Positions 41,878-64,000 of a DNA stretch of 64,000 nucleotides are shown here, one piece after another. The DNA is from a virus (lineage: Duplodnaviria > Caudoviricetes): the IMG/VR virus record IMGVR_UViG_3300006153_000003; one strand, 5' to 3'. A program made the position numbers and the translations under genes. Within the stretch, counting starts at the first letter, position 1. Every line of letters begins with the position of its first letter. Under the pieces are notes generated by a model that saw only the letters and a list, made by a program, of their open reading frames with translations, was not told the DNA's origin and made no database searches.

Positions 41878-41921
41878 GGAGTAAAGTATACTTTTCTGTC
41901 ATGACAAACCTCTTTACCTCC
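41878..41921 (-). promoter_or_regulatory. Structured leader E1 (SD-sequestering stem with two internal palindromes)
   Basis: GGAGGTAAAG...CTTTACTCC arms enclosing TGTCATGACA and AAAGTATACTTT. Confidence 0.65.
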
Positions 41922-41924
41922 CGT

Positions 41925-42182
41925 TTAATCTCCTATTACTTTCCAAGTTTCCTTATCACAAATCATTGCATTTTCGCATACTTCCATCATTATATAAGGA
42001 AGATAATTTTCTTCTAAAATCTCATTAGCTACTTGAATAAACTGGTCTCTACTGTATTCAATCTCATTATGAGAATATTCGTCTTCGTAATCCCAGATAT
42101 CGAGATACTGTACACCGATGAATTGATTCCTTTGTATATCTCCTTTAAATCTCTCTAATTCTTCACTGCAAAGTAATGTCAA
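41925..42182 (-). CDS. Hypothetical phage protein
   Basis: AAGGAG RBS. Confidence 0.55.
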   Translation of the reverse strand: MTLLCSEELERFKGDIQRNQFIGVQYLDIWDYEDEYSHNEIEYSRDQFIQVANEILEENYLPYIMMEVCENAMICDKETWKVIGD

Positions 42183-42227
42183 AATTTTATTCTCCTTTAC
42201 ATTATTTCTTAAAATTTTATAAACTTA

Positions 42228-42257
42228 TTGACATATAATTATTATACATGCTATTAT
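42228..42257 (+). promoter_or_regulatory. Sigma-A-type promoter of a moron
   Basis: TTGACA-18-TATTAT with extended -10 TG. Confidence 0.65.
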
Positions 42258-42301
42258 TATATATGTAAATATTAAACATATATTTTTAAGGAGGGTCAAG
42301 T

Positions 42302-42709
42302 ATGCCTACATTTTCTTATGCCGGATTCTGTTCTTCATATTCTTTCAGAAACAGTACCAATAACACCGGCGCACAAGCTGTTTTCAATTTCCTGTGTAAA
42401 CCTGAAAATATTCACAGCATGATTATTTTTGCAAATTTGAAGTTGCCTGTTATCAGTGGAATCGTGAAAGAACTGGAAAATAATTTTTCGAATACCAGGC
42501 AGTTCCCTTTAACAAATCGTACAAACCGACAGACCGTGGGACGTATGATAAAATTCATTCTTGGACATTTTGGCTATGTACCAACGATTGGAAGTCCAGA
42601 TGCCCGGGCAAAACTTCGAAATTTTTCAGAAGCGGAATTATTCAAAATGTGCAGTCTGTATGAGCTCCAAAATACTCCCGTCAACTCTATCTCTATGAAA
42701 ATTATTTAA
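42302..42709 (+). CDS. Hypothetical moron protein
   Basis: Own promoter, AAGGAGG RBS and terminator hairpin at 42720-42746. Confidence 0.75.
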   Translation: MPTFSYAGFCSSYSFRNSTNNTGAQAVFNFLCKPENIHSMIIFANLKLPVISGIVKELENNFSNTRQFPLTNRTNRQTVGRMIKFILGHFGYVPTIGSPDARAKLRNFSEAELFKMCSLYELQNTPVNSISMKII

Positions 42710-42777
42710 TTTTTCTTCTATCCCCAGCATATGAATATGCTGGGATTTTTGATGAAAGCAAAATTTTAACTCCATAT

Positions 42778-43041
42778 TTATTTACTATCCCATGTACTAT
42801 CTTCTGAACCCGAAAAATATATAGTAACTCCAATTGTATTGTCATCAACTGTAAATTTTTCATGTCTATCATAGAAATATCCATCTTTTATATCAATATT
42901 AATATTATCAGAAGAAAAAATGGTTTTATTATATATTTCTATTTTGTCATTTTCATTCTCAAATGTACTACATCCTGTGCATCCTGTTAAGCACTCACAA
43001 ACGCAAAACACACATAAAAGTAATTTTATTTTTCTTTTCAT
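42778..43041 (-). CDS. Putative lipoprotein
   Basis: LTGC lipobox; bracketed by junction motifs at 42752 and 43064. Confidence 0.6.
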   Translation of the reverse strand: MKRKIKLLLCVFCVCECLTGCTGCSTFENENDKIEIYNKTIFSSDNINIDIKDGYFYDRHEKFTVDDNTIGVTIYFSGSEDSTWDSK

Positions 43042-43076
43042 AAAGTCACCTCCAATTTTACCAATGAAAGAGTTGT

Positions 43077-43412
43077 TTAATTCACTACATCTTTACACTT
43101 ATCATTGATAAAGTTTTCAATATCGTTTATTTCGATATCTAACCTAGAACGAATTCTTTTCTTTCTTTCCAAAACATTCAAAATCTTATCATCATAAATT
43201 GGTTTCACAATACTTTTATCCGTAGTTATATTAATTCCCCCTTTTGGTGAATCAGAAAGAAATATATTACCATTTTCGAATATTTCAGAAATGAACAAAT
43301 ATCCGCATCTCTTATATTCTTCCAATAAATATCCACAGATAGCACTTTCATTTTTAACTTTAACTTTTAACCCTACATAGAGTAACATTTTATTTCTCCT
43401 TTTAGTACCCAT
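43077..43412 (-). CDS. Hypothetical phage protein
   Basis: ORF in operon; AAGGAG RBS before the second Met. Confidence 0.55.
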   Translation of the reverse strand: MGTKRRNKMLLYVGLKVKVKNESAICGYLLEEYKRCGYLFISEIFENGNIFLSDSPKGGINITTDKSIVKPIYDDKILNVLERKKRIRSRLDIEINDIENFINDKCKDVVN

Positions 43413-43422
43413 AAAATAAAAT

Positions 43423-43674
43423 CTATCCTAAAGCTTGAAATTTTGTATATCCTAAAATTTTCCAATTATCAGGCGAAGTATCTTGAATACCACAGCTTTT
43501 TGTTTCATCTGCAAAAAATGGACACTCACTGTTACAATCAGTATCATTTATCAAATTGTCTTCACAAACCTGTTTAATAATTTTTAACGATGTTATGATA
43601 CTCTTACCATTTACTTCTATTCCGTCTATTACTTTTTTCATTTTCCCTCCACTGTTTAATCTACAGTCCACCAA
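43423..43674 (-). CDS. Hypothetical Cys-containing phage protein
   Basis: GGAGGG RBS before the internal Met. Confidence 0.55.
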   Translation of the reverse strand: MVDCRLNSGGKMKKVIDGIEVNGKSIITSLKIIKQVCEDNLINDTDCNSECPFFADETKSCGIQDTSPDNWKILGYTKFQALG

Positions 43675-44108
43675 TAATCGAAGATTTTCTTAAATTGATT
43701 CCCTTTATAATGAATTTCTCCTTTATAATTTCTAACACATCGATTGGCATGTTTCTTACAAAATGCGTATCTATTCCCTTTACGATTTCCACGATAGCAT
43801 CTCTTATAATATGGTTTTGGATTTTTCACATATCCTTGTCCTTTAATCCAAATCTCATCAGTATATATAGCTGGAGATGGATATCCTTGAATATTCTCAG
43901 CAAGAAATTTGAGATGGTTCCTGTATTTCTGATCACATTCTCTTTTATTTCTTCTCTTTTGCTTAGAATGGTTTTTATCAATTATCAGTTCAATATATGC
44001 ATCCTCACAATATCCATATAGTAAATTCTTACCACCAACCTTATCACAATATTGTCCACCTAATTCATCTTTATAATATGGACAATTTTCACAATTCAAA
44101 CACATCAT
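43656..44108 (-). CDS. Hypothetical basic phage protein
   Basis: CLNCENC N-terminus; basic C-terminus. Confidence 0.55.
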   Translation of the reverse strand: MMCLNCENCPYYKDELGGQYCDKVGGKNLLYGYCEDAYIELIIDKNHSKQKRRNKRECDQKYRNHLKFLAENIQGYPSPAIYTDEIWIKGQGYVKNPKPYYKRCYRGNRKGNRYAFCKKHANRCVRNYKGEIHYKGNQFKKIFDYWWTVD

Positions 44109-44146
44109 CTCCTTGCTATAAAACCGATGTTTAATCTTATATGTAT

Positions 44147-44968
44147 TTATTCTTCTTCCCCAAAATTAAGCATCTCATCTTTTGCTCTTTGATAAAAAAT
44201 ACGATCAATTTCAAATCCATATGTACTTCTACCCAATTCATATGCTGCTCTTAGAGTAGTGCCAGAACCAGCACACGGATCTATAACTACATCACCAGGA
44301 TCAGTAAATATTTCAATCAATCTTTTTAAAACTGCAACCGGCTTCTGAGCAGGATGAATTTTAGGAATTTCTTTACCATCTTTCTTCCACTCAAACCAGT
44401 TAAAAATCATATGTCCTGTCCCTGGGATATTTTTGCCATTCTCATCGATCTGAAGACCATTTCTGAATTTTGGTAATTTATCACGATACAAAAGTAAAGC
44501 ATATTCTGTAGCTCCTACAACACGCATATTTGCTTTAAGTACCTGTGGACTGTAGTTCTTGCAAAATACAAGTGGTATAAAATGAATAAATCCATGCTTC
44601 TTTGATGCATTGATGAGAGTCTGAATCTGCTCAAAAGAACAAAATACAATCATACATGGCGAATTACTACTTCGTCCTCTCGGCACAGGCTTAATATCAT
44701 CTTTTTTCAACATCTTAGAGCAAAAATGAAAATACTCATAAAGATTAAAATTAAAATCCGAGTTAAAGGCCGCTTTCCCTGCTAATTTACTTTCTCCATT
44801 CTTACTGTCTCCGTTTTTATACCACATTGGATTTGATCCATAAAAATTATTCCCAACATTATAAGGAACATCGGCTATAATTAGTTGAGCTGGCCGGATT
44901 GCATATTTCTTGTAATTTTGCATACTGTCTCTATATAATTCACACTTAATTTTTCTTTTATGTTCCAT
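44147..44968 (-). CDS. DNA N6-adenine/N4-cytosine methyltransferase (beta-class motif order)
   Basis: ADVPY catalytic motif, HPAQKP, DPCAGSGTT. Confidence 0.92.
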   Translation of the reverse strand: MEHKRKIKCELYRDSMQNYKKYAIRPAQLIIADVPYNVGNNFYGSNPMWYKNGDSKNGESKLAGKAAFNSDFNFNLYEYFHFCSKMLKKDDIKPVPRGRSSNSPCMIVFCSFEQIQTLINASKKHGFIHFIPLVFCKNYSPQVLKANMRVVGATEYALLLYRDKLPKFRNGLQIDENGKNIPGTGHMIFNWFEWKKDGKEIPKIHPAQKPVAVLKRLIEIFTDPGDVVIDPCAGSGTTLRAAYELGRSTYGFEIDRIFYQRAKDEMLNFGEEE

Positions 44969-44972
44969 CTAT

Positions 44973-45026
44973 AATAAAGAGTAAATCATGATTTATTCTG
45001 CGCAGAAACCTCATTTCCTCCTTATT
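44973..45026 (-). promoter_or_regulatory. Structured leader E2
   Basis: AATAAGGAGGAAAT...ATTTACTCTTTATT arms enclosing TTCTGCGCAGAA and TAAATCATGATTTA. Confidence 0.65.
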
Positions 45027-45028
45027 TT

Positions 45029-45550
45029 TTACCTTGATCTTGCTAAATATTTACATAATTTTTTTCTTACTCTTGAAACCTGAGATTGTGAACAACCAAC
45101 TATTCTACCAATTTCTCTTTGTTTATATCCTTCGCTGATAAGAATAAAAATCTGTTTATCTCTATCTTTAAGCTTAGTCACATATTCCTCAAAAATAATT
45201 TCTGATAATACACTTTCTTCAACATTTTCTTTCGACGGGATATGATTTACAAAGGTAGATGTACCTTCACCATTACTATCCCCAAATTCAGCTTGATAAT
45301 AAACAACCTGATGATCTTGTATTCTTTTCATAGCCTTTTTATTTCTAACTTGCATAAATACTGTTGTAAACATACATTTATATGCGTACGTTGAAAATTT
45401 TGATTTGCTATCATCAAATTTACTACCGGCTTCACAAAGCCCAATTGCTGCTAAATCATAATAATCTTCGATAGATAAATGATACTTTTGTAAAAATGAA
45501 TATATCAAATTATGGTTCTCTTCTACTAATTTTCTTTGTTCTTCTGTGAT
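45029..45550 (-). CDS. Sigma-70-family sigma factor (probable ATC start)
   Basis: Region 2 (DLAAIGL..A..KFD...KFSTYA) and region 4 HTH (QREIG...SQSQVSR); GGAGGTG ahead of ATC at 45550. Confidence 0.85.
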   Translation of the reverse strand: MTEEQRKLVEENHNLIYSFLQKYHLSIEDYYDLAAIGLCEAGSKFDDSKSKFSTYAYKCMFTTVFMQVRNKKAMKRIQDHQVVYYQAEFGDSNGEGTSTFVNHIPSKENVEESVLSEIIFEEYVTKLKDRDKQIFILISEGYKQREIGRIVGCSQSQVSRVRKKLCKYLARSR

Positions 45551-45599
45551 TTAAAATCACCTCCTTACCAGTTGAATCGAAATTTTTATTTCCATTTAC

Positions 45600-46634
45600 T
45601 TATTTCTCATTCATCTTTTTACAAAATTCTCTATATTGTCTGGTATACTCATAAGTATCACCAAAAATATTATTCACAGCTTTATATAATTTCGGTTCAA
45701 AATTTTTTATCACTTCTAATTCATGCTCAAAATCTCTACCATATGAGCAACCTGCACACCCCGTTCTTTTTAACCCATAATCTGTATAACATTTGCTATG
45801 TATAATATGATAATGTTTATCATAATCTTCTTTATCTGCATTCTTATACCAAAATAAAGGTCTATAATTATCACAGTCATTTTCATTTTCGTCAAAGCAA
45901 CTTTTATATGCAGTTGCCCTGGCACCACCTTCTGCTTTTCTTATTCCAAGTATATTTAGATCATAATCAAATTCCGAAATTATTCTATGAGATACATCTT
46001 TTTTAGCATATTGGCAGCAAAGATTTGATATTTTAAACTGAGGTGGATTTTCAAGAATAAATTCTTTTAACCATTTATTCTGTGTAATGTTAAAATGGCT
46101 ATTTCCTCCTTTGGACTCACACCACCACTCTAAAGCCGATTTACATCCTACCCAACAGCTTTTCTTTTCATTCCATTTACAATATTTGGGGAGTAATTTC
46201 TCTATAGGTTCATCTTCCCATCCAAAGTTATGATTTTGAAGTCTACTCATAAATTCGCTGACTTGTTTTGATAAAAAGGGTTGTCCATATTCTCTACAGC
46301 AAGTAGGAATTGCTTTTACTGCTTTATATGTCTTTATTTCAATTCCATATTTTTCTCTAAGATATTTCAAATGATCTTTTGTCGCCTGGTATTCTAAACC
46401 AGTATCAAACCAAACATAATCTATCTTCTTGTCTTTATCACACCTGATACAAATATCAAGCATTATATCGCTATCAGATCCTCCGGATATCGCACATACG
46501 ATTTTTTTATATTTACTACTATTTATCTTTGCCCATACTCTTACCAGGTTATCTCCTATAATCTGATTTTTAGGACAGTTCTCTAATAGTCCTATTAAAT
46601 TTTTTTCACCCAATATGTATCTTTCCTCACGCAA
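45600..46634 (-). CDS. PAPS reductase-family (PP-loop) protein
   Basis: SGGSDS, DTGLE, CC..AKK, GIRKAEG..R and RTGCAGC motifs. Confidence 0.85.
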   Translation of the reverse strand: MREERYILGEKNLIGLLENCPKNQIIGDNLVRVWAKINSSKYKKIVCAISGGSDSDIMLDICIRCDKDKKIDYVWFDTGLEYQATKDHLKYLREKYGIEIKTYKAVKAIPTCCREYGQPFLSKQVSEFMSRLQNHNFGWEDEPIEKLLPKYCKWNEKKSCWVGCKSALEWWCESKGGNSHFNITQNKWLKEFILENPPQFKISNLCCQYAKKDVSHRIISEFDYDLNILGIRKAEGGARATAYKSCFDENENDCDNYRPLFWYKNADKEDYDKHYHIIHSKCYTDYGLKRTGCAGCSYGRDFEHELEVIKNFEPKLYKAVNNIFGDTYEYTRQYREFCKKMNEK

Positions 46635-46814
46635 TTAATCTACGTTTACGTGAGGTAAAGCCATACTTTATTCACAAATTATATTCGTATTCGTGGGTGT
46701 CTTTTTACGTCACTACCACATAACTTTTTCGATCATTTATCATCAACGTGCCATAATAAATAATCTTGTGACAACCTTTATTGGCTAAAGGTTATAAATA
46801 CTTTGGGTGATAGT

Positions 46815-47171
46815 CTAACCAATCTGTAGCACAGCATCTCCTACATATTCTACATTTAATACTTGTATATTTTTGATGGATATTTTGTGTTTTGACTCAT
46901 AATCTCTTGCAAACATATCAGCCCACATATCATCATATTCTTGTTCACCAGCATTATTTAGAATCATATATTTTTCAGATTCTTTGTAATTATTCTTCTC
47001 AGTCTCATATCCTACAGATACTTTATAAACCGGAAGTTCTAATTTTGATTTAATAAAGTTTCTCGGATGAATATTCATTAGCTTTTTCTTTAAACTGTCA
47101 TCAAAGATCTCAAATACATCAATCCCAGTTCTTATTGTACACCATTCAAAAAACTTACTTGGATGTAGCAC
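46815..47171 (-). CDS. Hypothetical phage protein
   Basis: GGAGGTG RBS. Confidence 0.6.
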   Translation of the reverse strand: MLHPSKFFEWCTIRTGIDVFEIFDDSLKKKLMNIHPRNFIKSKLELPVYKVSVGYETEKNNYKESEKYMILNNAGEQEYDDMWADMFARDYESKHKISIKNIQVLNVEYVGDAVLQIG

Positions 47172-47195
47172 TACTTTTCACCACCTCCTGTCAAA

Positions 47196-47852
47196 TTAAT
47201 TATTTTTCATTCTATAAGAATATTTATTATATCCGGGTTTTACATATCCTACAGGTTCATTAAATGCTCTCTCAATATCCCACCCTCTTGCCAAACGAGT
47301 TTGCAAACATCCACGCTTAAATCCCAAAATATTTTCCCATTCTTTCAAAGTATGAGTTTCGCCATTATAACAAATATTCTTATTATTTCTTCTATTGTTT
47401 TCTTGTACTTTCATTGTCACCCAACGACAATTTTGTGGAGAGTAATTTTCGTCAACATTTATCCTATCAATAGTTAAATTATCTTCATATCCGTTATTTA
47501 TAGACCATTTATAAAATTTAAGAAAACCACCTTTACCCAACCACTCTTTACAAATGGATATTGAACGTCCACCATAATGCTCATACTCTTTCGCATTTTT
47601 ATTAAAGCATCTTTGAATCATATTATAATAAATTTTATAAATTCTTGTTTTAGAAAGCTTATGTGTAGACCTTAATTCTCTAGCAAGACAACCACAACTT
47701 CGTGTATGCCCATTAGTCAAATTATTTATCACAACTCTTGTGACATTTCCACATTCACAATTACATAACCATATATACGATCCATGTTTTGTTTTAGCGA
47801 TAGGCTTAACTGCAGTTAGTCTTCCAAATTTTTCTCCTTTAATATTCTTAAT
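47196..47852 (-). CDS. HNH-type homing endonuclease-like protein (probable ATT start)
   Basis: GEKFGRLT, WLCNCECG, SCGC, YGGR, TIDRI and NYSPQNCRW motifs; frame extends to ATT at 47852 behind GAGGAGG. Confidence 0.8.
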   Translation of the reverse strand: MKNIKGEKFGRLTAVKPIAKTKHGSYIWLCNCECGNVTRVVINNLTNGHTRSCGCLARELRSTHKLSKTRIYKIYYNMIQRCFNKNAKEYEHYGGRSISICKEWLGKGGFLKFYKWSINNGYEDNLTIDRINVDENYSPQNCRWVTMKVQENNRRNNKNICYNGETHTLKEWENILGFKRGCLQTRLARGWDIERAFNEPVGYVKPGYNKYSYRMKNN

Positions 47853-48650
47853 CTTTTCTCCTCCTCTTTCATTACTCTATTTCGTCCCAGCTCAAATATC
47901 TCTTTATCCTTTTCAATACAAATAACTCTACGATTTGTATTAATCCCAGCAATGGCACACGTCATACTTCCAGCTGTGGAATCAAGTACAATATCTCCTT
48001 CATTTGTATATGTCTTCATAAAATACTCATAAATCTCCACAGGTTTCTGTGTCCTATGAATTTTATTAGATTGATCTGCATTACTAAAAATCTGCACATC
48101 AAGAGGATATCTATCTGTACTATCATAAGAAGTCTTTCTTACTTCTCTTCCATAGCAGCTATTTCCATCAGCTTCCCTAATATAATTTGTCTTTGCCACT
48201 TTTCTTTTATGTCCATGAGTCATCTGTGGGTTATATGTAGGTGGCTTCTTATAAAACACTTCTATGTTTTCATGTGCCCTCATTGGCATTTTCTTAGCAT
48301 TAAGATGCCCTTTAGGATGTGTTTTATTCCATATCCATTCATATCTAAACATCTTGGGGTTACTCATTACAAGAGCTGAGGTAAATGGTTGACTACTAAA
48401 GAGAAGAATTGCTCCATTATCTTTGATAATCCTGCAATATTGTTCCCATAATGGTTCAAAAGGAATTATTGTATCCCACTTACATTGAGTTGTACTAACC
48501 ATACGGGAGATCCGCGATTATGCAATCTATTGATTTATCTGGTATATAGCTCATAACATTCAAACAATCTCCGCATATCAATATATTATCTCGGAAACCC
48601 GTATTATCAGACACCTCACTTTCATTTAAAATCTTGTACATATTTATCAA
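47816..48650 (-). pseudogene. DNA N4/N6 methyltransferase split by a 4-nt insertion
   Basis: 5' part (48495-48650) reads GDCL...ADLPYG then stop; the rest (TTQCKWD...HRTQKP...DSTAGS) is in the next frame. Confidence 0.8.
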
Positions 48651-48662
48651 ATATATATTCAC

Positions 48663-48709
48663 CAGAAAGGCATGTCCATCTCACGGCTGCAGCACCTTTA
48701 TCCTTTCTG
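48663..48709 (-). promoter_or_regulatory. Structured leader E3
   Basis: CAGAAAGG...CCTTTCTG arms enclosing the palindrome GCTGCAGC. Confidence 0.65.
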
Positions 48710-48736
48710 TATTATTTTCTATATTGTTTTCTATAT

Positions 48737-49192
48737 TTAATCTAAATCTCCACAATGCACTAATGTGTTGCCACATCTAGGACATAATGTTTCACCTATG
48801 CCACCACTCCAACTTTCATACCATGGAGAAACCCATCTATTACAATGATGGCAAAACCAATCATAACAAATACTTCCGCTATATTTAATATCAGAGCTTC
48901 CGTATTTAGACTTACTATAAACAATTCTCCGTAGTCTTTCCTTTTCTTCTATTGCCTTTCTTTTTCGCTCTTCTATTTCCTTTTCTCTACGTTCTTCTTC
49001 TATCCATTTCAATTCTTGTTCTGAATATTCGTAGTCATCATCATACATCCCTTCAAATATTTCTTCTTCACCATTCCAACTACAGCATGGAGGTTCTATT
49101 GGTACACCACTCGCTCCCGAAGTCCAACCACCAATACAATCGTTTTGGTACAAAGGACATTCACTACAGTCTGTAATATTTTTTGCCTTAAT
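48737..49192 (-). CDS. Cys-rich hypothetical protein (probable ATT start)
   Basis: GGAGGTG ahead of ATT; CSEC, CHHC and CPRC motifs. Confidence 0.6.
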   Translation of the reverse strand: MKAKNITDCSECPLYQNDCIGGWTSGASGVPIEPPCCSWNGEEEIFEGMYDDDYEYSEQELKWIEEERREKEIEERKRKAIEEKERLRRIVYSKSKYGSSDIKYSGSICYDWFCHHCNRWVSPWYESWSGGIGETLCPRCGNTLVHCGDLD

Positions 49193-49235
49193 TTATATCA
49201 CCTCCAATCAAATGAAACAGATTTTTCATCTATAT

Positions 49236-49613
49236 TTATTCTTCTATCTTTTTGCATTTTATTTCGAAAAAGATCTTCATCCTTTCCTCTTCAACTCTTG
49301 TTTCTGCAAGTCTGCTTAAAAGATCAAGACAAGCACTTTTACAATTTATATGTGTTATTACATTATGCTTTTGCCCTCTTTCACCACCATATACAATCCA
49401 AGTGTCCCCTTTCTTTTCAAGACAAACTGTTTCTTCTGCATATCCTCCAAGAGAATAAAAATTTTCAGGAATGCCAAACTCTTTTAATATTTCGATTAAC
49501 ACATCTTGTATTTTTTCTTCCATCAATTTCATAGTCTCAGCTCCTTCAACACCATAACGGTAATAAAAATGCCCACAAGCATGTAGGTGACTTCGTAAAA
49601 TATACTCCTGCAA
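49236..49613 (-). CDS. Hypothetical protein, polymorphic-toxin-immunity-like (probable start at MKLMEEK)
   Basis: GIPENFYSL, W.VY..ERG pattern; function tentative. Confidence 0.45.
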   Translation of the reverse strand: MQEYILRSHLHACGHFYYRYGVEGAETMKLMEEKIQDVLIEILKEFGIPENFYSLGGYAEETVCLEKKGDTWIVYGGERGQKHNVITHINCKSACLDLLSRLAETRVEEERMKIFFEIKCKKIEE

Positions 49614-49761
49614 TAACTCCTATCGCAGTCGTGATCCACGCAGCTATTTGTACTTTCCAACGATTATCTATGTTTTTCACCTCCTACTTAAAATTTCCTT
49701 TAATATCTATACATATTTTTTTCACTTATACAAACACTACCTATGAAAGGAGTGTGTACGC

Positions 49762-49920
49762 ATGAAAAGTAGTAAAACAAATTTACCAACAATAAATCCT
49801 TACTCCAATGACGATTATGACGATGACAATATTCCAGAGGTTGATCTTCCAAAGACAACCGATGCCGAAAATATAATTCCAGATGAAGTGCCACGTCGTG
49901 ATGGTCCTGGTGGAGAGTGA
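49762..49920 (+). CDS. Small acidic protein (52 aa) ending VPRRDGPGGE, not in ORF track
   Basis: AAAGGAG RBS; manual translation; hairpin after the stop. Confidence 0.65.
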   Translation: MKSSKTNLPTINPYSNDDYDDDNIPEVDLPKTTDAENIIPDEVPRRDGPGGE

Positions 49921-49957
49921 GAGGGAATTTCCCCTTACTCACCCCCATACTCTCTCT

Positions 49958-50683: not shown

Positions 50684-50699
50684 TCCTTGCCACTAACTT

Positions 50700-52415: not shown

Positions 52416-52436
52416 TATTTAACCCTCCATTTTCAA

Positions 52437-53201: not shown

Positions 53202-53213
53202 TTGTTTCCTCCT

Positions 53214-55820: not shown

Positions 55821-56174
55821 TTGTCCTCCTTATATTTTATATCTGTTTTATAACATCTATAACAAAAGAATGTTAAAAATAATAAGGCCTAATACATTGA
55901 CCTTTCATCTCAGAATATATCTTCTACATCTGGGTTCAAATCATTCTCCTATTATCATCCAATTTCGTAACAAACTATCTAAACTTGAATATGGACATTC
56001 TGCATTGCTTTTAAGATCCCCGTAAGAATATACAATACTTTCCTTGAAATCTCTTTATTGATATTTTTATCATATATGTACCTCCTTTTTTAAAACCGCA
56101 AGAATTTGTACCTATAAATTTTCCTATAATCATTCATCATCTCCTCAGTTAAAATCTCGATTTTGTAGTGAGAG

Positions 56175-57509
56175 TTAAGCACCTTCAACCACTAACTCTT
56201 CAGCTTCCTCCATATCTGGAGCATCTGCTTTATCCTTGATTATCCCTTCAAGAACCTTAAAACTGAAATTCTTATGTTTATATGCTGTAAATTTCTCTCG
56301 ATTGTCAATTCTAACAACAACACCTTCCCTTACATGTGTCTTTCCAACCGGGTCAGCACCGTCATAATATTTCTCGACTCTCTCCATCAAATCTTCCCAT
56401 GTAGTAAATACAAACTTTTCAAAAGTAGGAACACACTTAACCCCCAGCTTCTTACATTCAATCTGTACCTGCTCCCAAGGAAGTTCCACAGCAAACCCGT
56501 CCTCATTTGTCATAGTCATTCGATATACATAAATATCATTTTCACCTGGCTCACACCCATATGAGAATACAGTTTCCTTACCATACTGCTTTTCAAAATC
56601 CTTATCTTTGACAAGTTTATTTGAACATCTTCCCATAATTGTTTGATTACCCTCTGTATATCCTACAATCTCATAAAATACTTCTACACCTTTTGGCAGT
56701 TTATCTTTGAAAAAGTCCTGATATTTCTGCCTAAACGCATTGCTACCATAATATCCACCTTCGTAATTCCTTAGTGTAGTTCTCTTGGTCCCACTTACTA
56801 CAGTGAATCTTTTTACTTCTTTATCCTTAATCTTAAATATTTTTTTCAAAATATAATGTCTTTTCTTTTTTACAATCTCAATAGCATTTGCAGTTCTGGC
56901 AGATGTGCCATGCATTTTAAGTGTTATGTAACAGGTATCACCCTCTCTAAAAGCATTTTGATTATATGCAAGCTGCGCAGTATCAATATGCTCAACAAAG
57001 AATGGATAAGAAACCTTTTCTTTTTCTTCTTTCTTATTTCTATTTTTATTCCCAGAAGAATTGTTTTCGCACCTTCTCCGATTAGAACGTGGAATATATT
57101 TTTTGCAAATTTCATGCCCATCCAACATAGAAATCTGGTCGCCATCTGATAATGTTTTTACGTCTACATATTTATTTAACACTTCAATTGGCAATACAAG
57201 TCCGTCTGACTTTTCACTTCTGAGTTTTAGAGCTGTGATATTTCTCTTATCAGGATCAAGATACCCTCCAACATTATTACCGTTTTCATCTTTCAAGCGA
57301 ACAAGATTATTTTCACACGCAAATTCTTCACTTAACTGACCATCTACAGGAAAATAAATTACTCGTTGCCCTTCTGTATAACTCATATCTACAATTACAT
57401 TGTTTCCAAAAATTGTTGCACACTGTAATCTGTCTGCATTACTATGTTTTCTAAGCTGCTTAATTGTTGTTATGTATCCACAATATCCATTTGTTCTATT
57501 TTGTTCCAA
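56175..57509 (-). CDS. RNA ligase (Rnl2-like) with N-terminal OB/tRNA-binding domain
   Basis: HSNADRL, KMHGTS (motif I), EIVG, REGVV and YKHK motifs. Confidence 0.85.
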   Translation of the reverse strand: MEQNRTNGYCGYITTIKQLRKHSNADRLQCATIFGNNVIVDMSYTEGQRVIYFPVDGQLSEEFACENNLVRLKDENGNNVGGYLDPDKRNITALKLRSEKSDGLVLPIEVLNKYVDVKTLSDGDQISMLDGHEICKKYIPRSNRRRCENNSSGNKNRNKKEEKEKVSYPFFVEHIDTAQLAYNQNAFREGDTCYITLKMHGTSARTANAIEIVKKKRHYILKKIFKIKDKEVKRFTVVSGTKRTTLRNYEGGYYGSNAFRQKYQDFFKDKLPKGVEVFYEIVGYTEGNQTIMGRCSNKLVKDKDFEKQYGKETVFSYGCEPGENDIYVYRMTMTNEDGFAVELPWEQVQIECKKLGVKCVPTFEKFVFTTWEDLMERVEKYYDGADPVGKTHVREGVVVRIDNREKFTAYKHKNFSFKVLEGIIKDKADAPDMEEAEELVVEGA

Positions 57510-57593
57510 ATTCGCTTACCGTCATAAGCTGTGCGCACTTTTCACCTATAGGAACTTTTGATTTATCCTTTCTTCTTTTCTTCTTTTATTTGA

Positions 57594-57622
57594 TTGACTA
57601 TTATTTTACTTTGTTATATACT
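57594..57622 (+). promoter_or_regulatory. Sigma-A promoter, antisense to the lytic operon
   Basis: TTGACT-17-TATACT. Confidence 0.7.
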
Positions 57623-57717
57623 ATTTTTGCCCCTTCGGTAGGCACTAGACAAAGATCTAACTGAAGGTAGTGGTAGTTCATGGGGCATTTACCATTACTC
57701 TAAAGGAGGTGTTGCCT

Positions 57718-57912
57718 ATGGTAGCAGATATCGCAACCATTGTTTCGTTTATGTGTTTGTTGATCTCGGAACTTGATTGTTTACGTTATCTAAGTCTAGT
57801 GCCCTACTTGAACTATCGCTTTAACTTATTGCTTTTTCTTTCATCCAATAAATCAAATCATTTCTATTATTCTTTAATTCTCCATCTATTACTCTTTTTA
57901 ATATCTCATTGA
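57718..57912 (+). CDS. Small hydrophobic peptide, type I toxin-like
   Basis: AAGGAGGT RBS; hydrophobic N-terminus; long-range pairing in the mRNA. Confidence 0.4.
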   Translation: MVADIATIVSFMCLLISELDCLRYLSLVPYLNYRFNLLLFLSSNKSNHFYYSLILHLLLFLISH

Positions 57913-59173
57913 GCCAATATCCAACGTCCTTCCCTTCTTTCAAATTCATTGTTTTCTTTACATCATTGCCATTTACAGCTAAATCTTTTAATGAAAAACA
58001 TTCTTGTTCCTGTAAAATTTCTTCAAGAATATCTTCTATATTATTTACTTTCTCTATTCGAGATTTTTCATAGTCTGTTTTTTGTCCTTTAATATCTGCT
58101 TTTCCAACTTCTAACAACCGTCTAAATTGCTTTTCGCCGATTTTATTAAGCCATCTCTTCACGTACTTTTTTCCGACTTCAAAAGTAGCATCATGATAAT
58201 ATACCAGCTCTACTACATTATTTCTGGTTCCATTATCAAATCTAAGACGTTTCATAATAGAATCTGTAATATCAGCACTTACTTTCCCATGACCTTTGAA
58301 ATGCCTAATACCATCTTCTCCATCCTGATAAGAATGTGGTTTCCCAAAATCGTGAAAGAAAACTGCAAGCCTTACGATCAAATCATCTGACTCACATTTT
58401 TCTATTGCATGAATCGTATGACCAAATACATCATACGCATGGTATGGATTATTCTGTTGGAAATCTATCATATCTTTTAATTCTGGAATAAACAGAGAAA
58501 ACACATCAGGATACAGCACTAATTCAACACAGAATTGGTTAGAAGCAACTATTTTACAAAATTCGCTGTTAATTCTTTCAACGGAAATATTCTTTAACCG
58601 CTCATATTGTCGTTCTATTTCAAACATTGTTTCTGGGAACCCCGCAAAACCTAACTGCGCTTCAAATCTTATTGCTCTCAGTATCCGCAAAGCATCTTCA
58701 TTAAACCTCTCTTCTGCGAAACCAACGCAACGAATCTTTTTATATTTAATATCTTCCATACCATTAAACGGATCAATCAGACCAGTTTTAGGATTGTATG
58801 CCATAGCATTAATCGTAAAATCTCTTCTCTGTAAATCTTCAACAAGATTCTTTGTGAATGTTACATTATCAGGTCTACGATTATCAGAATAATCTCCATC
58901 AATCCGATAAGTTGTTACCTCATATGGTTCTTTATTTATCAGTATTGTTACTGTACCATGTTTCAGACCAGTAGGAATAACTTCTTCATTTGGAAATGCT
59001 TCTAATATTTCACCTGGCATGGCAGATGTACAGATATCATAGTCATGAATTGGCCGTCCTAATATACTATCTCTAACTGCTCCACCTACCATATATGCTT
59101 CATACCCACATTTCTCTAATTCCTGTATGATATAATTTACCGGCGCAGGAACTTCTATATTAAATCTTTCCAT
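57821..59173 (-). CDS. cca: CCA-adding tRNA nucleotidyltransferase with HD domain
   Basis: VGGAVRD, DYD, RRDFTINAMA, EDALRILR and HDFGK motifs. Confidence 0.92.
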   Translation of the reverse strand: MERFNIEVPAPVNYIIQELEKCGYEAYMVGGAVRDSILGRPIHDYDICTSAMPGEILEAFPNEEVIPTGLKHGTVTILINKEPYEVTTYRIDGDYSDNRRPDNVTFTKNLVEDLQRRDFTINAMAYNPKTGLIDPFNGMEDIKYKKIRCVGFAEERFNEDALRILRAIRFEAQLGFAGFPETMFEIERQYERLKNISVERINSEFCKIVASNQFCVELVLYPDVFSLFIPELKDMIDFQQNNPYHAYDVFGHTIHAIEKCESDDLIVRLAVFFHDFGKPHSYQDGEDGIRHFKGHGKVSADITDSIMKRLRFDNGTRNNVVELVYYHDATFEVGKKYVKRWLNKIGEKQFRRLLEVGKADIKGQKTDYEKSRIEKVNNIEDILEEILQEQECFSLKDLAVNGNDVKKTMNLKEGKDVGYWLNEILKRVIDGELKNNRNDLIYWMKEKAIS

Positions 59174-60116
59174 TAATATCTACCTCAATTTGTGGAATCT
59201 CAATAAACTTCGCCAATAATCCTTCATGGTAAAAAACTTTGTCACTTTCAGTAACTTCTTCTCCAAGAAACTTTCTTAAAACAAATGGCAATGCAAAATT
59301 ATTCAAACATTTAAACTCTATTTCGGTATCACCATTCTCATCCATAATTTCTTTGTAATATCCATCTATCCCAACAATCTTATGAAGTAAAAATAACTCT
59401 GTTTTGAGCGGAACTGGTATATCCTTTATACCATTGCTAATAGCAAATGCAATTCTTTCCTGCCTATTCCTATCCATATCAGAAATATCAAGCATAATTT
59501 CGTCATTAGAAAAAAATACAACTCGATCCAATGATACAAACACTTCTGTTAAATATGTCAATACACCGTCCATAAGATATTTTTCAAATGTGATATGTTT
59601 TTTAGGATTGCAGTTGCCTAAAATAACCTGACGGATATATTTACTATTGATTATGTGCTGGTTATCTGTATATTTACTAATAAAATTCTCCCAAGAAACA
59701 GCTCCACCAAAAATATCAGCGCTATAGTGATGTAAAGATGAAAAGTTTGCTTTTCTCATATCAATACTGATAAAACATTTCCCATCATTTGATGGCTTAA
59801 ATATATCTTTATTAGAAAGGTTTTTATGTGTCACAGCATACTTATTCATATCTTCTTCATTAAATTTTTGATAAGCTTCCGTATTCTTGATATCTAAAAT
59901 AGTAGCATCCTTTACACGATTATATTCTTCAAAATAGTCTTGTTCACAATGGTATTTCCCCAGTTCGCTTAAAAATATATTCCACTTTTTAAGTGTTCCA
60001 TAAAACTTATCATATAGGACCAATCTATCAGTAAAATATGGTTCCTGGAATATCCTGATTGGAATATTGCAATCTTTACAAAATCTTTCTTTTGCCCTAA
60101 CAGATACTTCCATCAT
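59160..60116 (-). CDS. Uncharacterised protein, possible family-A polymerase-like palm
   Basis: SIDMRKANF and FFSNDEI acidic motifs; function is inference. Confidence 0.45.
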   Translation of the reverse strand: MMEVSVRAKERFCKDCNIPIRIFQEPYFTDRLVLYDKFYGTLKKWNIFLSELGKYHCEQDYFEEYNRVKDATILDIKNTEAYQKFNEEDMNKYAVTHKNLSNKDIFKPSNDGKCFISIDMRKANFSSLHHYSADIFGGAVSWENFISKYTDNQHIINSKYIRQVILGNCNPKKHITFEKYLMDGVLTYLTEVFVSLDRVVFFSNDEIMLDISDMDRNRQERIAFAISNGIKDIPVPLKTELFLLHKIVGIDGYYKEIMDENGDTEIEFKCLNNFALPFVLRKFLGEEVTESDKVFYHEGLLAKFIEIPQIEVDINGKI

Positions 60117-61141
60117 ATCTCTCCCTTCACAATTCTCTCATTTACATACATCTTAAACTCGTTAATTCTTTTATGATCTGGCACATCAGGAAGAGAAGTA
60201 TTATTTTTCGCATAATCAAATTTCCTTTCATACTCATTCAGCAAATCGTAAAATGCAGTAGTTGGTTGCCTGTTTTCATCTAAATACTCACCGTTACGTA
60301 TACTCATAAGCAAGTCATGCTCATCCGCCCTATATGTGATAATTTCTTCTTTTTCAAGAATATCAATACACATCATATAAAGCCGGATCAAATGGGCCAT
60401 ATGTTTTCCCAACTTGTCATGCGATATTGCTTTTTCATTTCGTTTGCCGATTTTGTTATAACTGCTTACAATCGCCTTCATTTCATTCCACATACCAGCC
60501 CAGTCTCTCAGTGGATAATGTTTCAAACATACATCCATGAAAATCTCACTGTCATATCCTTCTTGAACTGCTGTATCAATATATAGTTTTACATCACTAT
60601 CATCATGCGGATAATACCTGTTTTTAAAATCGTATTTTGCGTTATTGATGCTTTTTAGAATATATTCTTCATTCTGTGCCTGACCTACCAACCTTGCAGC
60701 TTTATTTTCCATTCTACGGAGTTGGCTGCCGGCATACCCTCCAAATGTATGAATGCAGACTTTAGACAAAAACATTTTTCTATTCTCTAAAAGCTCTTTT
60801 CCAATATTTGATAAATGTAAATAATGCTCCGGCTTGCAACCCAAAATTTCCACCGTGTTAGGGTTGTTGGACGTAAGTAATTGGATCATTTTGTTAAATG
60901 AATATATTGTAGTGTCGGTATCTACATTTACAACCTGCTCAAAATCTGTTCCTAACAGAACATCTTTCTTAGTATTTAAAGCAATCCCTCGCACATCCAA
61001 GTCAGATCCTTCTTTATCCATCCCATAAGCATGACTTCCTCCAAGAGTTAAGAGAATAATATTATCACCCAAATTCTTATCCTCTCTCAGGAAATCATAT
61101 TCACTTGTTTTTAATTTTTCTTTAATCTGTTCAATATTCAT
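60113..61141 (-). CDS. RlaP-like nucleotidyltransferase (Pol beta superfamily)
   Basis: GGSHAYG...SDLDVRG, NPNTVEIL and KHMAHLIRL motifs. Confidence 0.85.
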   Translation of the reverse strand: MNIEQIKEKLKTSEYDFLREDKNLGDNIILLTLGGSHAYGMDKEGSDLDVRGIALNTKKDVLLGTDFEQVVNVDTDTTIYSFNKMIQLLTSNNPNTVEILGCKPEHYLHLSNIGKELLENRKMFLSKVCIHTFGGYAGSQLRRMENKAARLVGQAQNEEYILKSINNAKYDFKNRYYPHDDSDVKLYIDTAVQEGYDSEIFMDVCLKHYPLRDWAGMWNEMKAIVSSYNKIGKRNEKAISHDKLGKHMAHLIRLYMMCIDILEKEEIITYRADEHDLLMSIRNGEYLDENRQPTTAFYDLLNEYERKFDYAKNNTSLPDVPDHKRINEFKMYVNERIVKGEI

Positions 61142-61158
61142 TCTCTCAACTCCCTCTT

Positions 61159-61542
61159 CTATCTACATTCTTCAAATACAATAACTTTAAACACAAGTTT
61201 GAACTGTAAATCTTTTTTAATTATACCAATTTTCTGAAGTTTCACCAACTCAGTTTCTATATATCCATGACATTTTTCTATATCAGAAATATTAAACATT
61301 TCTGTATTAAAGCTATATTCATCACCAGAAGCCAAAACATATCCAAAATATAAATAGGAATCATTCATCGGATCATCAAAAAATTGAATTTCTCCTTTTC
61401 TCTGGTTACAAATATAATTTTCCCCTTCTTTTGACCACTTCCAATCCGCAAACTTATCTGTTTCACATCCGGTCAAATCATAACCGGCTACAACATAATA
61501 ACTACTTTCTATGCTCATTTTTTTCCTCCCAATGAAATGCAA
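61159..61542 (-). CDS. Hypothetical phage protein (probable start at MSIESS)
   Basis: GGGAGG RBS before the internal Met. Confidence 0.6.
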   Translation of the reverse strand: MHFIGRKKMSIESSYYVVAGYDLTGCETDKFADWKWSKEGENYICNQRKGEIQFFDDPMNDSYLYFGYVLASGDEYSFNTEMFNISDIEKCHGYIETELVKLQKIGIIKKDLQFKLVFKVIVFEECR

Positions 61543-61825
61543 GATTTATCCAATAAGACCATTTTTCTTTCGGTGTTCAAAACTACCCATGTGACAACCA
61601 TGATTATGACATACAGAAAAAATATTCATTAGTGGATATTTATAAATACATTTTCCTTACCTAACACATAACATTTCTCCCTTTGTGTAAACATTATCAC
61701 ATTCAATTTGTTTCGGTTTTGCAACATCTTTAAAAATTATTTCAACTTGCATTATATTTCTCCCTTCATATAATCATCATTGATTTTTTGATTATTTTAA
61801 TCAAAGAAATGAATCGTGTGTTCTA

Positions 61826-62329
61826 TTATTTCTTCTCTACCACCAAACTATTTTTCTGCACTGCTGTAATTACATTCGATAATTCATCATCTCTTACTTC
61901 TATTTTCTGTTTAATTTTACCATCTGAATTATATCTGCCACGCATAGCAGCACCAACAGCTATGTAATTGTCTTTTGTAACTGTTGTAATCGTGTTACAT
62001 AGTCCATCAGTCCTAAGAGTATACTCACGCATATTACATCTGCGTTCTTTAATTTTACCTGCCTCATAGTCTTTTCTGATTTGCTTTGCATATTCTGTTC
62101 TCTGATATTTGAGTGCTGCGGGAAGAACATTGTTTTCAACAGCATATAAATAACTATATCCACCAGCATTTCCTAATGGCTGTGCCGTTAAACACATTGC
62201 TATTGCATTTGCATCATATACACGATTTCCCTGGCGATACTGTTTACCAAAATTAATTTCTCCAATACCGCCTAATAAAATTGGTTTATGTTCACCACAA
62301 GTAGATTCTATTCCACTTGTGGCTTGGTA
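61826..62329 (-). CDS. -1-frame extension of the C5 methyltransferase (extra TRD-like repeats)
   Basis: Open frame from the slippery site to 61826; QGNRVYD..AIAMCLTA and CNTITT segments resemble repeats in the upstream gene. Confidence 0.7.
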   Translation of the reverse strand, partial: YQATSGIESTCGEHKPILLGGIGEINFGKQYRQGNRVYDANAIAMCLTAQPLGNAGGYSYLYAVENNVLPAALKYQRTEYAKQIRKDYEAGKIKERRCNMREYTLRTDGLCNTITTVTKDNYIAVGAAMRGRYNSDGKIKQKIEVRDDELSNVITAVQKNSLVVEKK

Positions 62330-62335
62330 AAATTT
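62295..62335 (-). other. Programmed -1 ribosomal frameshift signal
   Basis: A_AAT_TTT heptamer, 6-nt spacer, 11-bp hairpin CCACAAGTGGA / TCTACTTGTGG. Confidence 0.75.
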
Positions 62336-63915
62336 CCTATGTTTATACTCTCATATAGCCTATTTAATGCATATTCAAATGCGCCAATTCCTGAAAAGAA
62401 ACTACTTAGTTTTAAGTTATCAAATAGATATGGCATTGCCTTATATAATTCAACAAATATATAATATAAAACGTCTACAACTATAGAATTACCTGCCTGC
62501 TTATAGAGCTGACTGTTACTTACATTTTTACTTGCTGATTCGTAAGCAGAATCCGCAAATCCCATTAATCGAAAACATTCTTTTGGAGTCAATTTACGAA
62601 TTCTAATTTGCTCTTTTACGAAGTTATTACATTCCCAACTATGTGAAGATAATGTAGGACAAATATCATGTTCTCCACCTTTATTAAAACCCCTTGGCTT
62701 TTGAATTATTGTCTTGTCATCAGTTTCTTTAACCTCTGATACAAGCTGTCTTCTGTGCTTGTCAACATATTGTTCTATTGTCGTTCCTTTATAATAGTTT
62801 GCATCTAGGCAGTAACTATAATCTGGTGTCTCCAAAACGGCAGTACCTTCCGATTTTCTATTACTGATACCACGATCCTCCCTGGCTGTAACACAATTTG
62901 CGTACTCAATCTGTTTTGTATCGTTTATACTTTTATCAATACCACAAATAATCTTAGGTTCATGACTACCGCCACCACACGTATTTAATGTTGGAGAACA
63001 ACCATCAGAATCATAAATTCTTCCCACCTGCGGATTCTTCCAATTTCCATCACAATCAGAAATATTTCCCACTTGTTTTACCACATTTTCATTTACCAAC
63101 CTGGGGTCTTTATAATCTCTTGAATTAAGAGTTGGGCAGTAATCATTATACTCTCTTGATTTACCTTCTCTTTTTACCTGACACGGATCATACAAAAGTG
63201 AATCATTGCTATTTAGACTTGTCAAAAACCTCTGTACTTTATCATTAGAAATATAATATTTTTCATCCACTTCATCTTCCAAAACATCTTTTAATCGAAT
63301 TCCATTATCAAATCTTTCGGGAAATACAAATTTACCATTGTCTAGGTCTTTTTTAATAAAAATAAGATAAACTCGCTCTCTGTTCTGAGGAACCCCATAA
63401 TCCTTTGCATTCAGTACTTTCCAATATGTATTGTATCCATACTCATGTAGCTCATCTTCAAATAGCCTAAATGTAGTATCTCTAAACTGCTTTCCTACAA
63501 TATTTTTAACATTCTCATACATTCCAAAATTCGGCTTATTTGCTCGAATCACTCTCAAATATTCAACAAGCAATGATGATCTTGTCTTTTCGATATTCTC
63601 ACTACTACAATTTGGACATTTATTCCTCTGACTCCAATGTACGGTTAGTGGATTATATCCATGTCCGCAATCTTTACAAGTCCACACTGATCCTTTTTGT
63701 TTACCGGCCACACTGAAATCCTGACAAGGACTGCCTCCACAAATCATATTAAAATCTTTTAATTTCGTTTCATCAACCTTAGTAATATCATCAAGATTCA
63801 AATTTTCATCTACTCCGTGAATTGCACAGTAGCTTTTAACTGCATACTTATCAAATTCACAAAAATTTACCAGTTCCCAATTTTTTCTTAAACTAAATCT
63901 TTCAATGGGAGTCAT
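62308..63915 (-). CDS. dcm: DNA cytosine-C5 methyltransferase, circularly permuted
   Basis: GGSPCQDFS, ENV, PQNRER, RKLTPKEC and QAGNS motifs; motif I FFSGIGAFE at the C-terminus. Confidence 0.92.
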   Translation of the reverse strand: MTPIERFSLRKNWELVNFCEFDKYAVKSYCAIHGVDENLNLDDITKVDETKLKDFNMICGGSPCQDFSVAGKQKGSVWTCKDCGHGYNPLTVHWSQRNKCPNCSSENIEKTRSSLLVEYLRVIRANKPNFGMYENVKNIVGKQFRDTTFRLFEDELHEYGYNTYWKVLNAKDYGVPQNRERVYLIFIKKDLDNGKFVFPERFDNGIRLKDVLEDEVDEKYYISNDKVQRFLTSLNSNDSLLYDPCQVKREGKSREYNDYCPTLNSRDYKDPRLVNENVVKQVGNISDCDGNWKNPQVGRIYDSDGCSPTLNTCGGGSHEPKIICGIDKSINDTKQIEYANCVTAREDRGISNRKSEGTAVLETPDYSYCLDANYYKGTTIEQYVDKHRRQLVSEVKETDDKTIIQKPRGFNKGGEHDICPTLSSHSWECNNFVKEQIRIRKLTPKECFRLMGFADSAYESASKNVSNSQLYKQAGNSIVVDVLYYIFVELYKAMPYLFDNLKLSSFFSGIGAFEYALNRLYESINIGNFTKPQVE

Positions 63916-63948
63916 GAACCCATGAAAGATTCACAAATAACAAATTAG

Positions 63949-64000
63949 AGAAAGGATATAACAAGTAATTCCGGATAAATTAGCGTTGCAACGCCTTGTA
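63949..64000 (-). promoter_or_regulatory. Structured leader E4 (truncated by the window edge)
   Basis: Anti-SD arm TCCTTTCT with palindromes GCGTTGCAACGC and TCCGGA. Confidence 0.55.

Follow-up and report, generated by a model that had tools for sequence, protein, structure and literature searches.

The window analysed here, the whole 64,000-nucleotide (nt) stretch of the Caudoviricetes record IMGVR_UViG_3300006153_000003, is AT-rich (33% GC), originates from mouse-gut samples and gave no match in a near-identity search against INPHARED phages. The minus strand is the coding strand for the genes located at 40-64 kb, and the leaders discussed below are read as the reverse complement. A GGAGG-type Shine-Dalgarno (SD) sequence 6-10 nt 5' of the start codon is the rule for most genes of the window. 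Five coding segments have no SD at normal spacing (40762-41868, 44147-44968, 48495-48662, 56175-57509 and 62308-63915), and our subject is the set of leaders, named R1, R2, R3, R5 and R4 in that order, in which a distal SD and twin palindromes are found instead. The genes concerned, all on the minus strand, are a radical-SAM-like gene with a TTG start (40762-41868; phrog_9298, E=1.2e-47), whose CxxxCxxC motif reads CFRQCEFC and for which a Pfam search gave no match; N6_N4 DNA methyltransferase (MTase) 1 (44147-44968; PF01555, E=1.1e-25); N6_N4 MTase 2 (47816-48662; PF01555), present as two pieces, 48495-48662 and 47816-48502; an RNA ligase gene (56175-57509; TTG start at 57509); and the C5 cytosine DNA methyltransferase dcm (62308-63915; PF00145, E=3.9e-59; phrog_116). 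A preliminary description, made from the sequence alone, had reported the lack of a normally spaced SD before the four of these that depend on S-adenosylmethionine (SAM), and this is borne out on the minus strand. Phage orphan methyltransferases decide which hosts are open to progeny, and control of their dose is largely unknown.

In R1, R2 and R3 a strong SD 45-55 nt upstream of the start codon pairs with an anti-SD arm ending 0-8 nt before the SD-less start, and two palindromes are enclosed between the arms of this helix, P1. The earlier proposal of an SD about 50 nt upstream, paired with an anti-SD by the start, holds for these three leaders, and the palindromes that it located are present. 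R1 (family A1; 41869-41924, minus strand) precedes the radical-SAM-like gene; its P1 arms are GGGAG (5', 41922-41918) and CTCCT (3', 41881-41877), its palindromes are TGTCATGACA (41906-41897) and AAAGTATACTTT (41894-41883), and the TTG start lies at 41868. It is kept in the homologous loci L001-L004, where GTATAC has become GTGCAC or GTGCGC. R2 (family A1; 44969-45028, minus strand) precedes MTase 1, with its ATG start at 44968, and comprises P1 arms AATAAGGAG (5', 45026-45018) and CTCTTTATT (3', 44981-44973) and palindromes TTCTGCGCAGAA (45007-44996) and TAAATCATGATTTA (44995-44982). R3 (48663-48736, minus strand), before MTase 2, has the same layout in a sequence family of its own: CAGAAAGG (48709-48702) pairs with CCTTTCTG (48670-48663), and P1 abuts the GTG start at 48662. 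Its one intact palindrome is GCTGCAGC (48693-48686). The site taken in the preliminary description for a second palindrome, CATG, is there, and is a decayed form of ATGATCAT, which is intact in the relatives at L019:386, L020:6 and L021:1122; these also carry a compensatory change of GCTGCAGC to GTTGCAAC. R5 (57510-57572, minus strand), before the RNA ligase, had been described as a partial relative, and rightly so: it has a distal SD, GAAAGGAT (57572-57565), the palindromes CCTATAGG (57552-57545) and GTGCGCAC (57538-57531) and a third hairpin (57529-57514), is without an anti-SD arm, and is conserved before the RNA ligase in L051:444.

Comparison was made with homologue loci from IMG/VR, designated by L numbers (18 loci for the radical-SAM gene and 80 for MTase 1). 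Relatives of the leaders that keep the layout while the palindromes change occur in well over 100 viral contigs, as the preliminary description anticipated in stating that architecture is kept while sequence is not. Palindromes upstream of homologues include TGCGCA, TCCGGA, TCGCGA, CCCGGG, CGGCCG, CCTGCAGG, TGGCCA, ACTAGT, GTATAC, GTGCAC, GACGTC and GATATC, among others. In L014 the module is absent and a normal SD is in place. The common layout, a distal GAAAGGA or GGAGG, about 10 nt, palindrome 1, an A-rich spacer and palindrome 2, is shared by at least three sequence families. A covariance model built on R1/R2-type leaders and then broadened to 24 sequences matched R1 (41874-41925, E=3.6e-15) and R2 (44974-45025, E=2.4e-15) and, with a cut-off of E<0.1, no other site of the window, and covariance models do not unite R3, R4 and R5 with these two. 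By alignment, R1 and R2 are one family, and R3, R4 and R5 share the layout only; the claim of a single architecture stands for the layout and fails for a single model. In one relative (L022:1777-1840) ACG replaces ATG at the MTase start, and from an ATG immediately 3' of the distal SD the reading frame stays open across the entire leader, which may there be translated as an N-terminal extension.

The module is exchanged between genes. Matches to the model lie in gene orientation and, wherever the downstream gene was examined, directly before a gene; 517 kb of loci chosen for C5-MTase held only two, before a classical C5-MTase (L143) and a permuted C5-MTase (L150). An R2 leader is found also in L019-L026, and in L012 one stands before the radical-SAM gene, which makes the module portable. 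Other leader-bearing genes encode N6_N4 MTases, D12/Dam MTases (L006, L129), an EcoRI-like MTase (L020) and, among proteins that do not use SAM, a PAPS-reductase-like protein (L038, phrog_424) and RNA ligase. When all of IMG/VR was scanned with the 17-nt 5' junction, 115+ contigs were recovered, and 26 of the 37 distinct sequences continue as full leaders. The genes downstream of 51 instances encode a double-zinc-ribbon protein (39, largely from closely related phages), Dam (9), N6_N4 MTases (2) and a radical SAM protein (1). Altogether the module has been exchanged among five DNA-MTase families and radical SAM, PAPS-reductase-like, RNA ligase and zinc-ribbon genes, with two to three leader copies per phage; it is a widespread and portable RNA module that marks DNA- and RNA-modification genes in gut Clostridia-type phages. 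That it precedes all four SAM-enzyme genes is correct within the window, and the tabulated MTase and radical-SAM genes fit this, but elsewhere it also precedes genes unrelated to SAM: it is linked to nucleic-acid modification and repair genes and to the zinc-ribbon protein, not to SAM as such.

Two observations may be recorded beside these. The double-zinc-ribbon protein (about 203 aa, four CxxC pairs, a sub-threshold Pfam DZR_2 match, no PHROG) is the commonest gene product behind the A1 leader (L192:2497-3105, L189:1476-2141 and about 37 more loci), and has no homologue in the window. In a contig from sequencing run X17, position 48725, within R3, is followed directly by 56149, a point slightly beyond the RNA ligase gene; the contig therefore comes from a related phage in which the intervening 7.4 kb are missing or replaced, with the leader at the module boundary.

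The level at which selection acts was judged by strand-sensitive measures. A first structural descriptor matched both strands, since an SD...anti-SD element is its own reverse complement at the DNA level, and being strand-blind it was replaced by comparison of G.U with A.C mispairs and of sense with antisense folding. The sense strand folds better than the antisense strand in 26 of 28 distinct leaders (-13.2 versus -10.6 kcal/mol), and P1 is present in nearly all of the minimum-energy structures. The arms of P1 covary beyond the SD core: pairing of each arm with its own partner scores 6.56, versus 5.65 with mismatched partners, a value reached by none of 20000 permutations, and the gain in stem is +0.97 when G.U is allowed and +0.25 when A.C is allowed. 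In the alignment of 24 leaders, which was itself fitted to the model, 97% of cells are paired versus 85% in shuffled controls (0 of 500 as high) and about 50% in slid registers, and 8 of the 13 pairs are altered on both sides. MAFFT did not bring P1 into register across leader classes. Symmetrical scoring of 333 pairs from 56 distinct palindromic elements gave 24 that were not Watson-Crick, namely 17 G.U, 3 A.C and 4 other (one-sided binomial probability of 17 G.U against 3 A.C about 0.0013). The covariation by which the preliminary description proposed to judge the leaders is thus present in the arms of P1, and a helix between the SD and a complementary strand, the feature that marks an attenuator or coupler, is supported by it. 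Covarying arms, tolerance of G.U and not of A.C, and better folding of the sense strand together argue for an RNA element. Sequence comparison accordingly shows a conserved predicted fold, constraint on the mRNA-sense RNA and exchange of the module between genes. The suggestion of a regulatory RNA for DNA-modification genes has held up, and the leader is absent from Rfam 15.

The geometry of the leaders is consistent with control of translation. Elements are 39-54 nt long, and P1 ends 4-12 nt before the start codon in 31 of 32 contexts, with a mode of 6-8 nt, which is the normal position of an SD. An upstream open reading frame (ORF) could be identified in 22 contexts, and in 19 of these its stop codon lies -1 to 23 nt before P1 (median over all 22, 8.5 nt). 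R1, R2 and R3 would then be modules of 40-55 nt between an upstream stop codon and an SD-less start codon, predicted to fold as a small three-way junction with P1 as the outer helix and the palindromes as hairpins P2 and P3. The sole strong SD, in the 5' arm, would be paired with an anti-SD 3' arm lying at the usual place of an SD, and P1 would in this way withhold the only SD and keep synthesis of potentially harmful enzymes low. The helix would be opened by a ribosome that terminates some 8 nt (the median) upstream of it, and the same ribosome could begin again at the start codon that P1 brings close to the stop. No small-molecule ligand would be involved.

Hairpins that sequester an SD, and coupling through their unfolding, are familiar from the MS2 coat-replicase junction and from many operons. 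The leaders resemble these in the pairing of SD with anti-SD and, in most contexts that have an upstream ORF, in a stop codon so close to the helix that a ribosome terminating there could unfold it. They are unlike them in that the freed SD is some 45 nt from the start, such that unfolding alone gives no normal initiation site, and in being portable between unrelated genes. Upstream mini-ORFs are not conserved for R1-R3 or the homologue leaders. Bypass from an upstream ORF, of the T4 gene 60 type, was considered and rejected: the codon that might serve for landing in R1 falls in the wrong frame, and different contexts have different upstream ORFs.

R4 lies on invertible DNA, and both orientations exist in otherwise identical DNA. 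The invertible segment occupies 63903-64000 of the window and extends past its end, to about 125 bp in all. It contains GAAAGGA (63950-63956, plus strand), TCCGGA (63970-63975) and GCGTTGCAACGC (63983-63994), and the first five codons of the C5-MTase (ATG ACT CCC ATT GAA); the gene-proximal breakpoint is at 63902/63903, within TTGAAAGATT. R4 had been taken for a truncated copy of the arrangement seen at the other genes. That is not the case, for its AGAAAGGA (about 63949-63956) is on the plus strand, opposite to dcm, and the block is inverted: in the orientation of the window the R4 leader faces away from dcm. Of 79 relatives, about 66 have the block pointing toward the gene, and 8 (L099, L117, L119, L148, L160, L161, L166 and L167) carry it as its exact reverse complement. 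Between the window and L139 the 106 bp of block seen in the window are inverted at 97% identity with the gene collinear, and inverted blocks of 120-160 bp with collinear flanks separate L148 from L156 (92.5%), L099 from L128 (96%) and L117 from L101 (95%). Contigs of three runs from three other studies (X11, X10 and X17, the last a metatranscriptome run with sparse contigs) are identical to dcm up to 63902, where they jump to 64000 and run back along the other strand toward 63903; at R4 the contig from X1 has the same order as the window. Loose ends at 63894 in X1 and X11 are possibly the other junction of the flipped form, 30 letters being too few to tell.

The borders of the block are short AT-rich inverted repeats such as TTTTGTTTTTAT/ATAAAAACAAAA. 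These are perfect over 12 nt in L156/L148 and in L117 and over 10 nt in L101, and in the window and L139 have only a common core of about 7-10 nt, TTGAAA[G/T]ATT. Two tyrosine recombinases are encoded in the window, one of 330 aa and Xer-sized (838-1830, minus strand) and one of 409 aa and of integrase type (5297-6526). The former adjoins CTAAATGGCAA, a putative tail-fibre shufflon site found at 2033-2043 (plus strand) and, with one mismatch, at 2888-2898 (minus strand); no match to CTAAATGGCAA within two mismatches occurs at the dcm breakpoint. No strand-change joints were found at R2, R3 or R5 in run contigs, nor a flipped interior among more than 60 homologues of R2-type leaders, so R4 alone is invertible.

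The R4 block holds a proximal SD and the start codon. In L101 these give AAAGGA-ttt-TTG; the flipped block of L117 offers no start and puts a TAA in frame. For the phage of the window, the forward form known from L139 would have the sequence TTG GAA AGT AAT AAT AAA|AGA, and the flipped form of the window reads ATG ACT CCC ATT GAA|AGA without an SD. The upstream neighbour in L139 is co-oriented, so that the block does not divide a divergent gene pair. R4 would be a longer relative of the other leaders whose SD and start codon, riding on an invertible segment, make the C5-MTase phase-variable; the window shows the minority orientation, in which the SD-bearing leader is removed from the dcm mRNA and an SD-less ATG left. 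A flip of this kind could make a clonal phage or lysogen population epigenetically heterogeneous, a form of bet-hedging against restriction systems. The cwpV (PMC2784873) and flgB (PMC5386303) switches of C. difficile likewise have a short invertible segment between upstream sequence and ORF, act after transcription initiation and belong to a Clostridia setting. R4 differs in carrying the proximal SD and first codons of a phage orphan C5-MTase, in inverted repeats of only about 7-14 nt and in having no RecV-like invertase linked. Inversions in MTase and restriction-modification genes (PMC9881135; hsdS invertons, PMC7672463) also make DNA methylation variable, but these swap specificity domains through long repeats of at least 22 bp, whereas R4 swaps the translation-initiation region and five codons. 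R4 is a new candidate for a leader-borne inversion switch, one that would act where translation begins on the mRNA of a phage orphan MTase.

We consider it probable that R1-R3 are cis-acting mRNA leaders that throttle or couple translation and that R4 adds phase variation. Several observations weigh against this reading. Folding of the five candidate RNAs of the window is no more favourable than that of shuffled sequences (z -0.03 to -1.3), and palindromes counted within the window alone are not enriched, perfect ones being slightly under-represented overall; the case from the window is weak, and it is the comparative evidence, drawn from homologous sequences, that is strong and decisive. Ten of the 32 contexts lack an ORF of 50 or more codons that stops close by on the upstream side, and coupling is therefore not universal. 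How an SD-less start would be used in an SD-dependent host is left unexplained, closure of P1 might instead enhance initiation by bringing a second SD-like motif, GAGG, near the start, and hairpins do not account for the self-complementarity of their central four nucleotides. For R4, both orientations keep an in-frame start in this phage, and ON and OFF are assigned on that account only provisionally; no close orthologue of the window recombinases was found in five inverton-bearing contigs, and no invertase in the flanks of 80 loci.

The palindrome centres bear on the first alternative, in which identical leaders kiss or form extended duplexes and translation or decay becomes dependent on mRNA concentration. 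Hairpins with a 4-nt loop and a stem of 4 bp or more were sampled upstream of all homologues, blind to palindromes; of the 36 distinct leader hairpins, 16 have self-complementary loops, versus 4.6% of 1801 control hairpins from the same loci. This points to selection on the centres, and a general mutational bias of template switching is ruled out by the same controls. Near-identical leaders differ in the palindrome centre only (TGT[GCGC|CGCG|CCGG]ACA and AAAT[CATG|CCGG]ATTT), and centres shift by mirrored steps (GCGC, CGCG, CCGG, CATG) with a single intermediate, TGTCA|CGACA in L092. Where a centre is imperfect, it is usually a wobble variant and can still pair in sense RNA. AAAGCUGGCUUU, in 14 contigs, occurs beside AAAGCCGGCUUU, in 12, and CUGG occurs as a centre in four contexts and CCAG in none. 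The central nucleotides of a hairpin cannot pair with one another, so a simple three-way junction does not give the whole picture, and the rule of self-complementary centres is a concrete puzzle. Dimerisation would account for these features and could act on top of the P1 mechanism. Loops of four nucleotides are, however, ill suited to kissing, a simple antiparallel dimer has no room for pairing of both of a leader's different palindromes, no precedent is known among phage mRNAs, and the counts of centres are small. We regard dimerisation as unlikely; if true, it would tie translation of DNA-modification enzymes to the concentration of their own mRNA, each leader having a private palindrome 'address', and would be a bacterial-virus counterpart of retroviral dimerisation sites.

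Unlikely too, in our judgement, is a split ribosome-binding site that enhances initiation, the folded interior bringing the distal SD, or the GAGG of the junction, near the start. The strong consensus of the distal SD, the folded RNA downstream of it and the tight spacing of 4-12 nt from P1 to the start are in its favour, and there is precedent in T4 genes 38 and 25, where folding reduces the spacing from 22 to 5 nt and from 27 to 11 nt (Nivinskas 1999; Malys and Nivinskas 2009; reviewed in PMC3014915). The T4 sites are similarly intercistronic in phage mRNA, with an SD far from the start and folded RNA between. They differ in having a single-stranded SD, one hairpin and a final spacing of 5-11 nt, in contrast to the leaders, in which the SD is paired to an anti-SD in the closing helix and two palindromic hairpins lie inside, and in which the effect is likely to be repression or coupling rather than enhancement. 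An unpaired SD at 5-11 nt after folding is not what the distal SD provides, since it is itself paired in nearly every predicted fold, and if the interior folds while this SD is free, the start is still 13-14 nt and an unpaired anti-SD away. Several leader classes lack the second SD-like motif.

The leaders might alternatively be modules of mRNA processing or stability, either of the STAB-SD type or with the P1 hairpin at a processed 5' end, that block 5'-3' decay in a Firmicute host; this we find rather improbable. The sequence GAAAGGAG(G) resembles the STAB-SD of cryIIIA of B. thuringiensis (PMC4113751), RNase J1 is halted where a ribosome occupies a strong SD (PMC5737220), and the R4 and R5 types have a distal SD and no anti-SD arm by the start. 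As in the leaders, the SD of cryIIIA is similar to GAAAGGAGG, belongs to a Firmicute leader and is not within working distance of a start codon, but it is unpaired and lies in a 5' untranslated region, whereas the leader SD is paired to an anti-SD between cistrons. An anti-SD arm at the SD position, starts without an SD and the palindromes would all go unexplained.

It is very improbable that the leaders are SAM- or S-adenosylhomocysteine (SAH)-responsive riboswitches, as first proposed, with a ligand at the three-way junction stabilising the SD:anti-SD helix in the manner of SAM-III (SMK box, RF01767) or SAM-VI. Most downstream genes use SAM, the fold is a small junctioned RNA with a regulatory SD:anti-SD helix as in SAM-III, and AAAGAGGTTT, the strand at the junction, stays constant in family A1 as the hairpins vary. 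That strand is kept in family A1 only, however, and no core is common to the leader classes; variability is greatest in the very interior from which a ligand pocket would have to be built; the arms, with the SD on the 5' side and the anti-SD on the 3' side, stand in the opposite order to those of SMK; and leaders do not precede metK, standing also before RNA ligase, PAPS-reductase-like and double-zinc-ribbon genes. The likeness of R3 to the SAM-III core, GAAAGGAT...ATGCCTT in the DNA and GAAAGGAU...AUGCCUU in the RNA, is superficial, there being no match to the RF01767 model. Rfam gave nothing at any leader in the window at the gathering threshold, no leader match for any family, every SAM and SAH class and SAM-III/SMK included, at E<=10 over 41000-64000, and no leader match at five loci at E<=1.

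Equally improbable are sites acting at the DNA level, whether operators for dimeric proteins, methylation or restriction sensors, or sites of cassette recombination. The palindromes are perfect and restriction-site-like, the whole element is strand-symmetric as DNA, the module lies before different genes and at a contig join (48725 to 56149), and one relative, R4, lies in invertible DNA. Against this stand the 17:3 bias to G.U over A.C, an RNA constraint, and the folding advantage of the sense strand; the lack of flipped R2-type interiors; and the roughly ten different palindromes per phage, which would require as many proteins. The methylation-sensitive operators of the preliminary description are further contradicted by MTases 84-93% identical that have quite different palindromes and by leader hexamers that are neither unique nor avoided (observed versus expected in the window: TCATGA, 18 and 20; GTATAC, 11 and 12; TGCGCA, 6 and 6), and at these expected frequencies a unique restriction site or a restriction arms race is likewise rejected. 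Integron attC or cassette sites (RYYYAAC...GTTRRRY) were discarded as well, the arms being of the AGGAG/CTCCT type and the recombinases of the window belonging to the phage-integrase family and lying elsewhere. The leaders do not belong to SAM-III, to split ribosome-binding sites that use the distal SD, or to attC, and no description of a twin-palindrome leader was found in the literature.

Some features of the neighbouring genes may be added. MTase 2 is interrupted by a +1 frameshift directly 3' of its DLPYG motif (...ADLPYG*, the next frame reading ...STTQCKWD), and in a tblastn comparison with the intact relative L020 the match changes frame from residue 34 to residue 36. The frame continues unbroken here in relatives, L020:66-863 for example, and the X1 contig has no indel there, so the gene is either truly broken or dependent on frameshifting. 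The C5-MTase (62308-63915) is apparently circularly permuted, judging from its motif I (FSGIGAFE), which is C-terminal and follows motif X; its relatives begin at the same residue. It is followed by a 174-codon open frame (61826-62350, minus strand) in another frame, containing a second QGNRVYD...CLTA block. A PAPS-reductase-like gene (45600-46660, minus strand; phrog_424) is also without an SD, its TTG start lying within the hairpin CCTCACG...CGTGAGG, and a twin-palindrome leader at L038:1752 precedes a member of the same family. A small sigma-70-like protein with regions 2 and 4 is encoded directly upstream of R2 and MTase 1 (45029-45508, minus strand), and a DDE transposase gene lies at 8686-10002, near the tyrosine recombinase at 838-1830 and the second integrase at 5297-6526.

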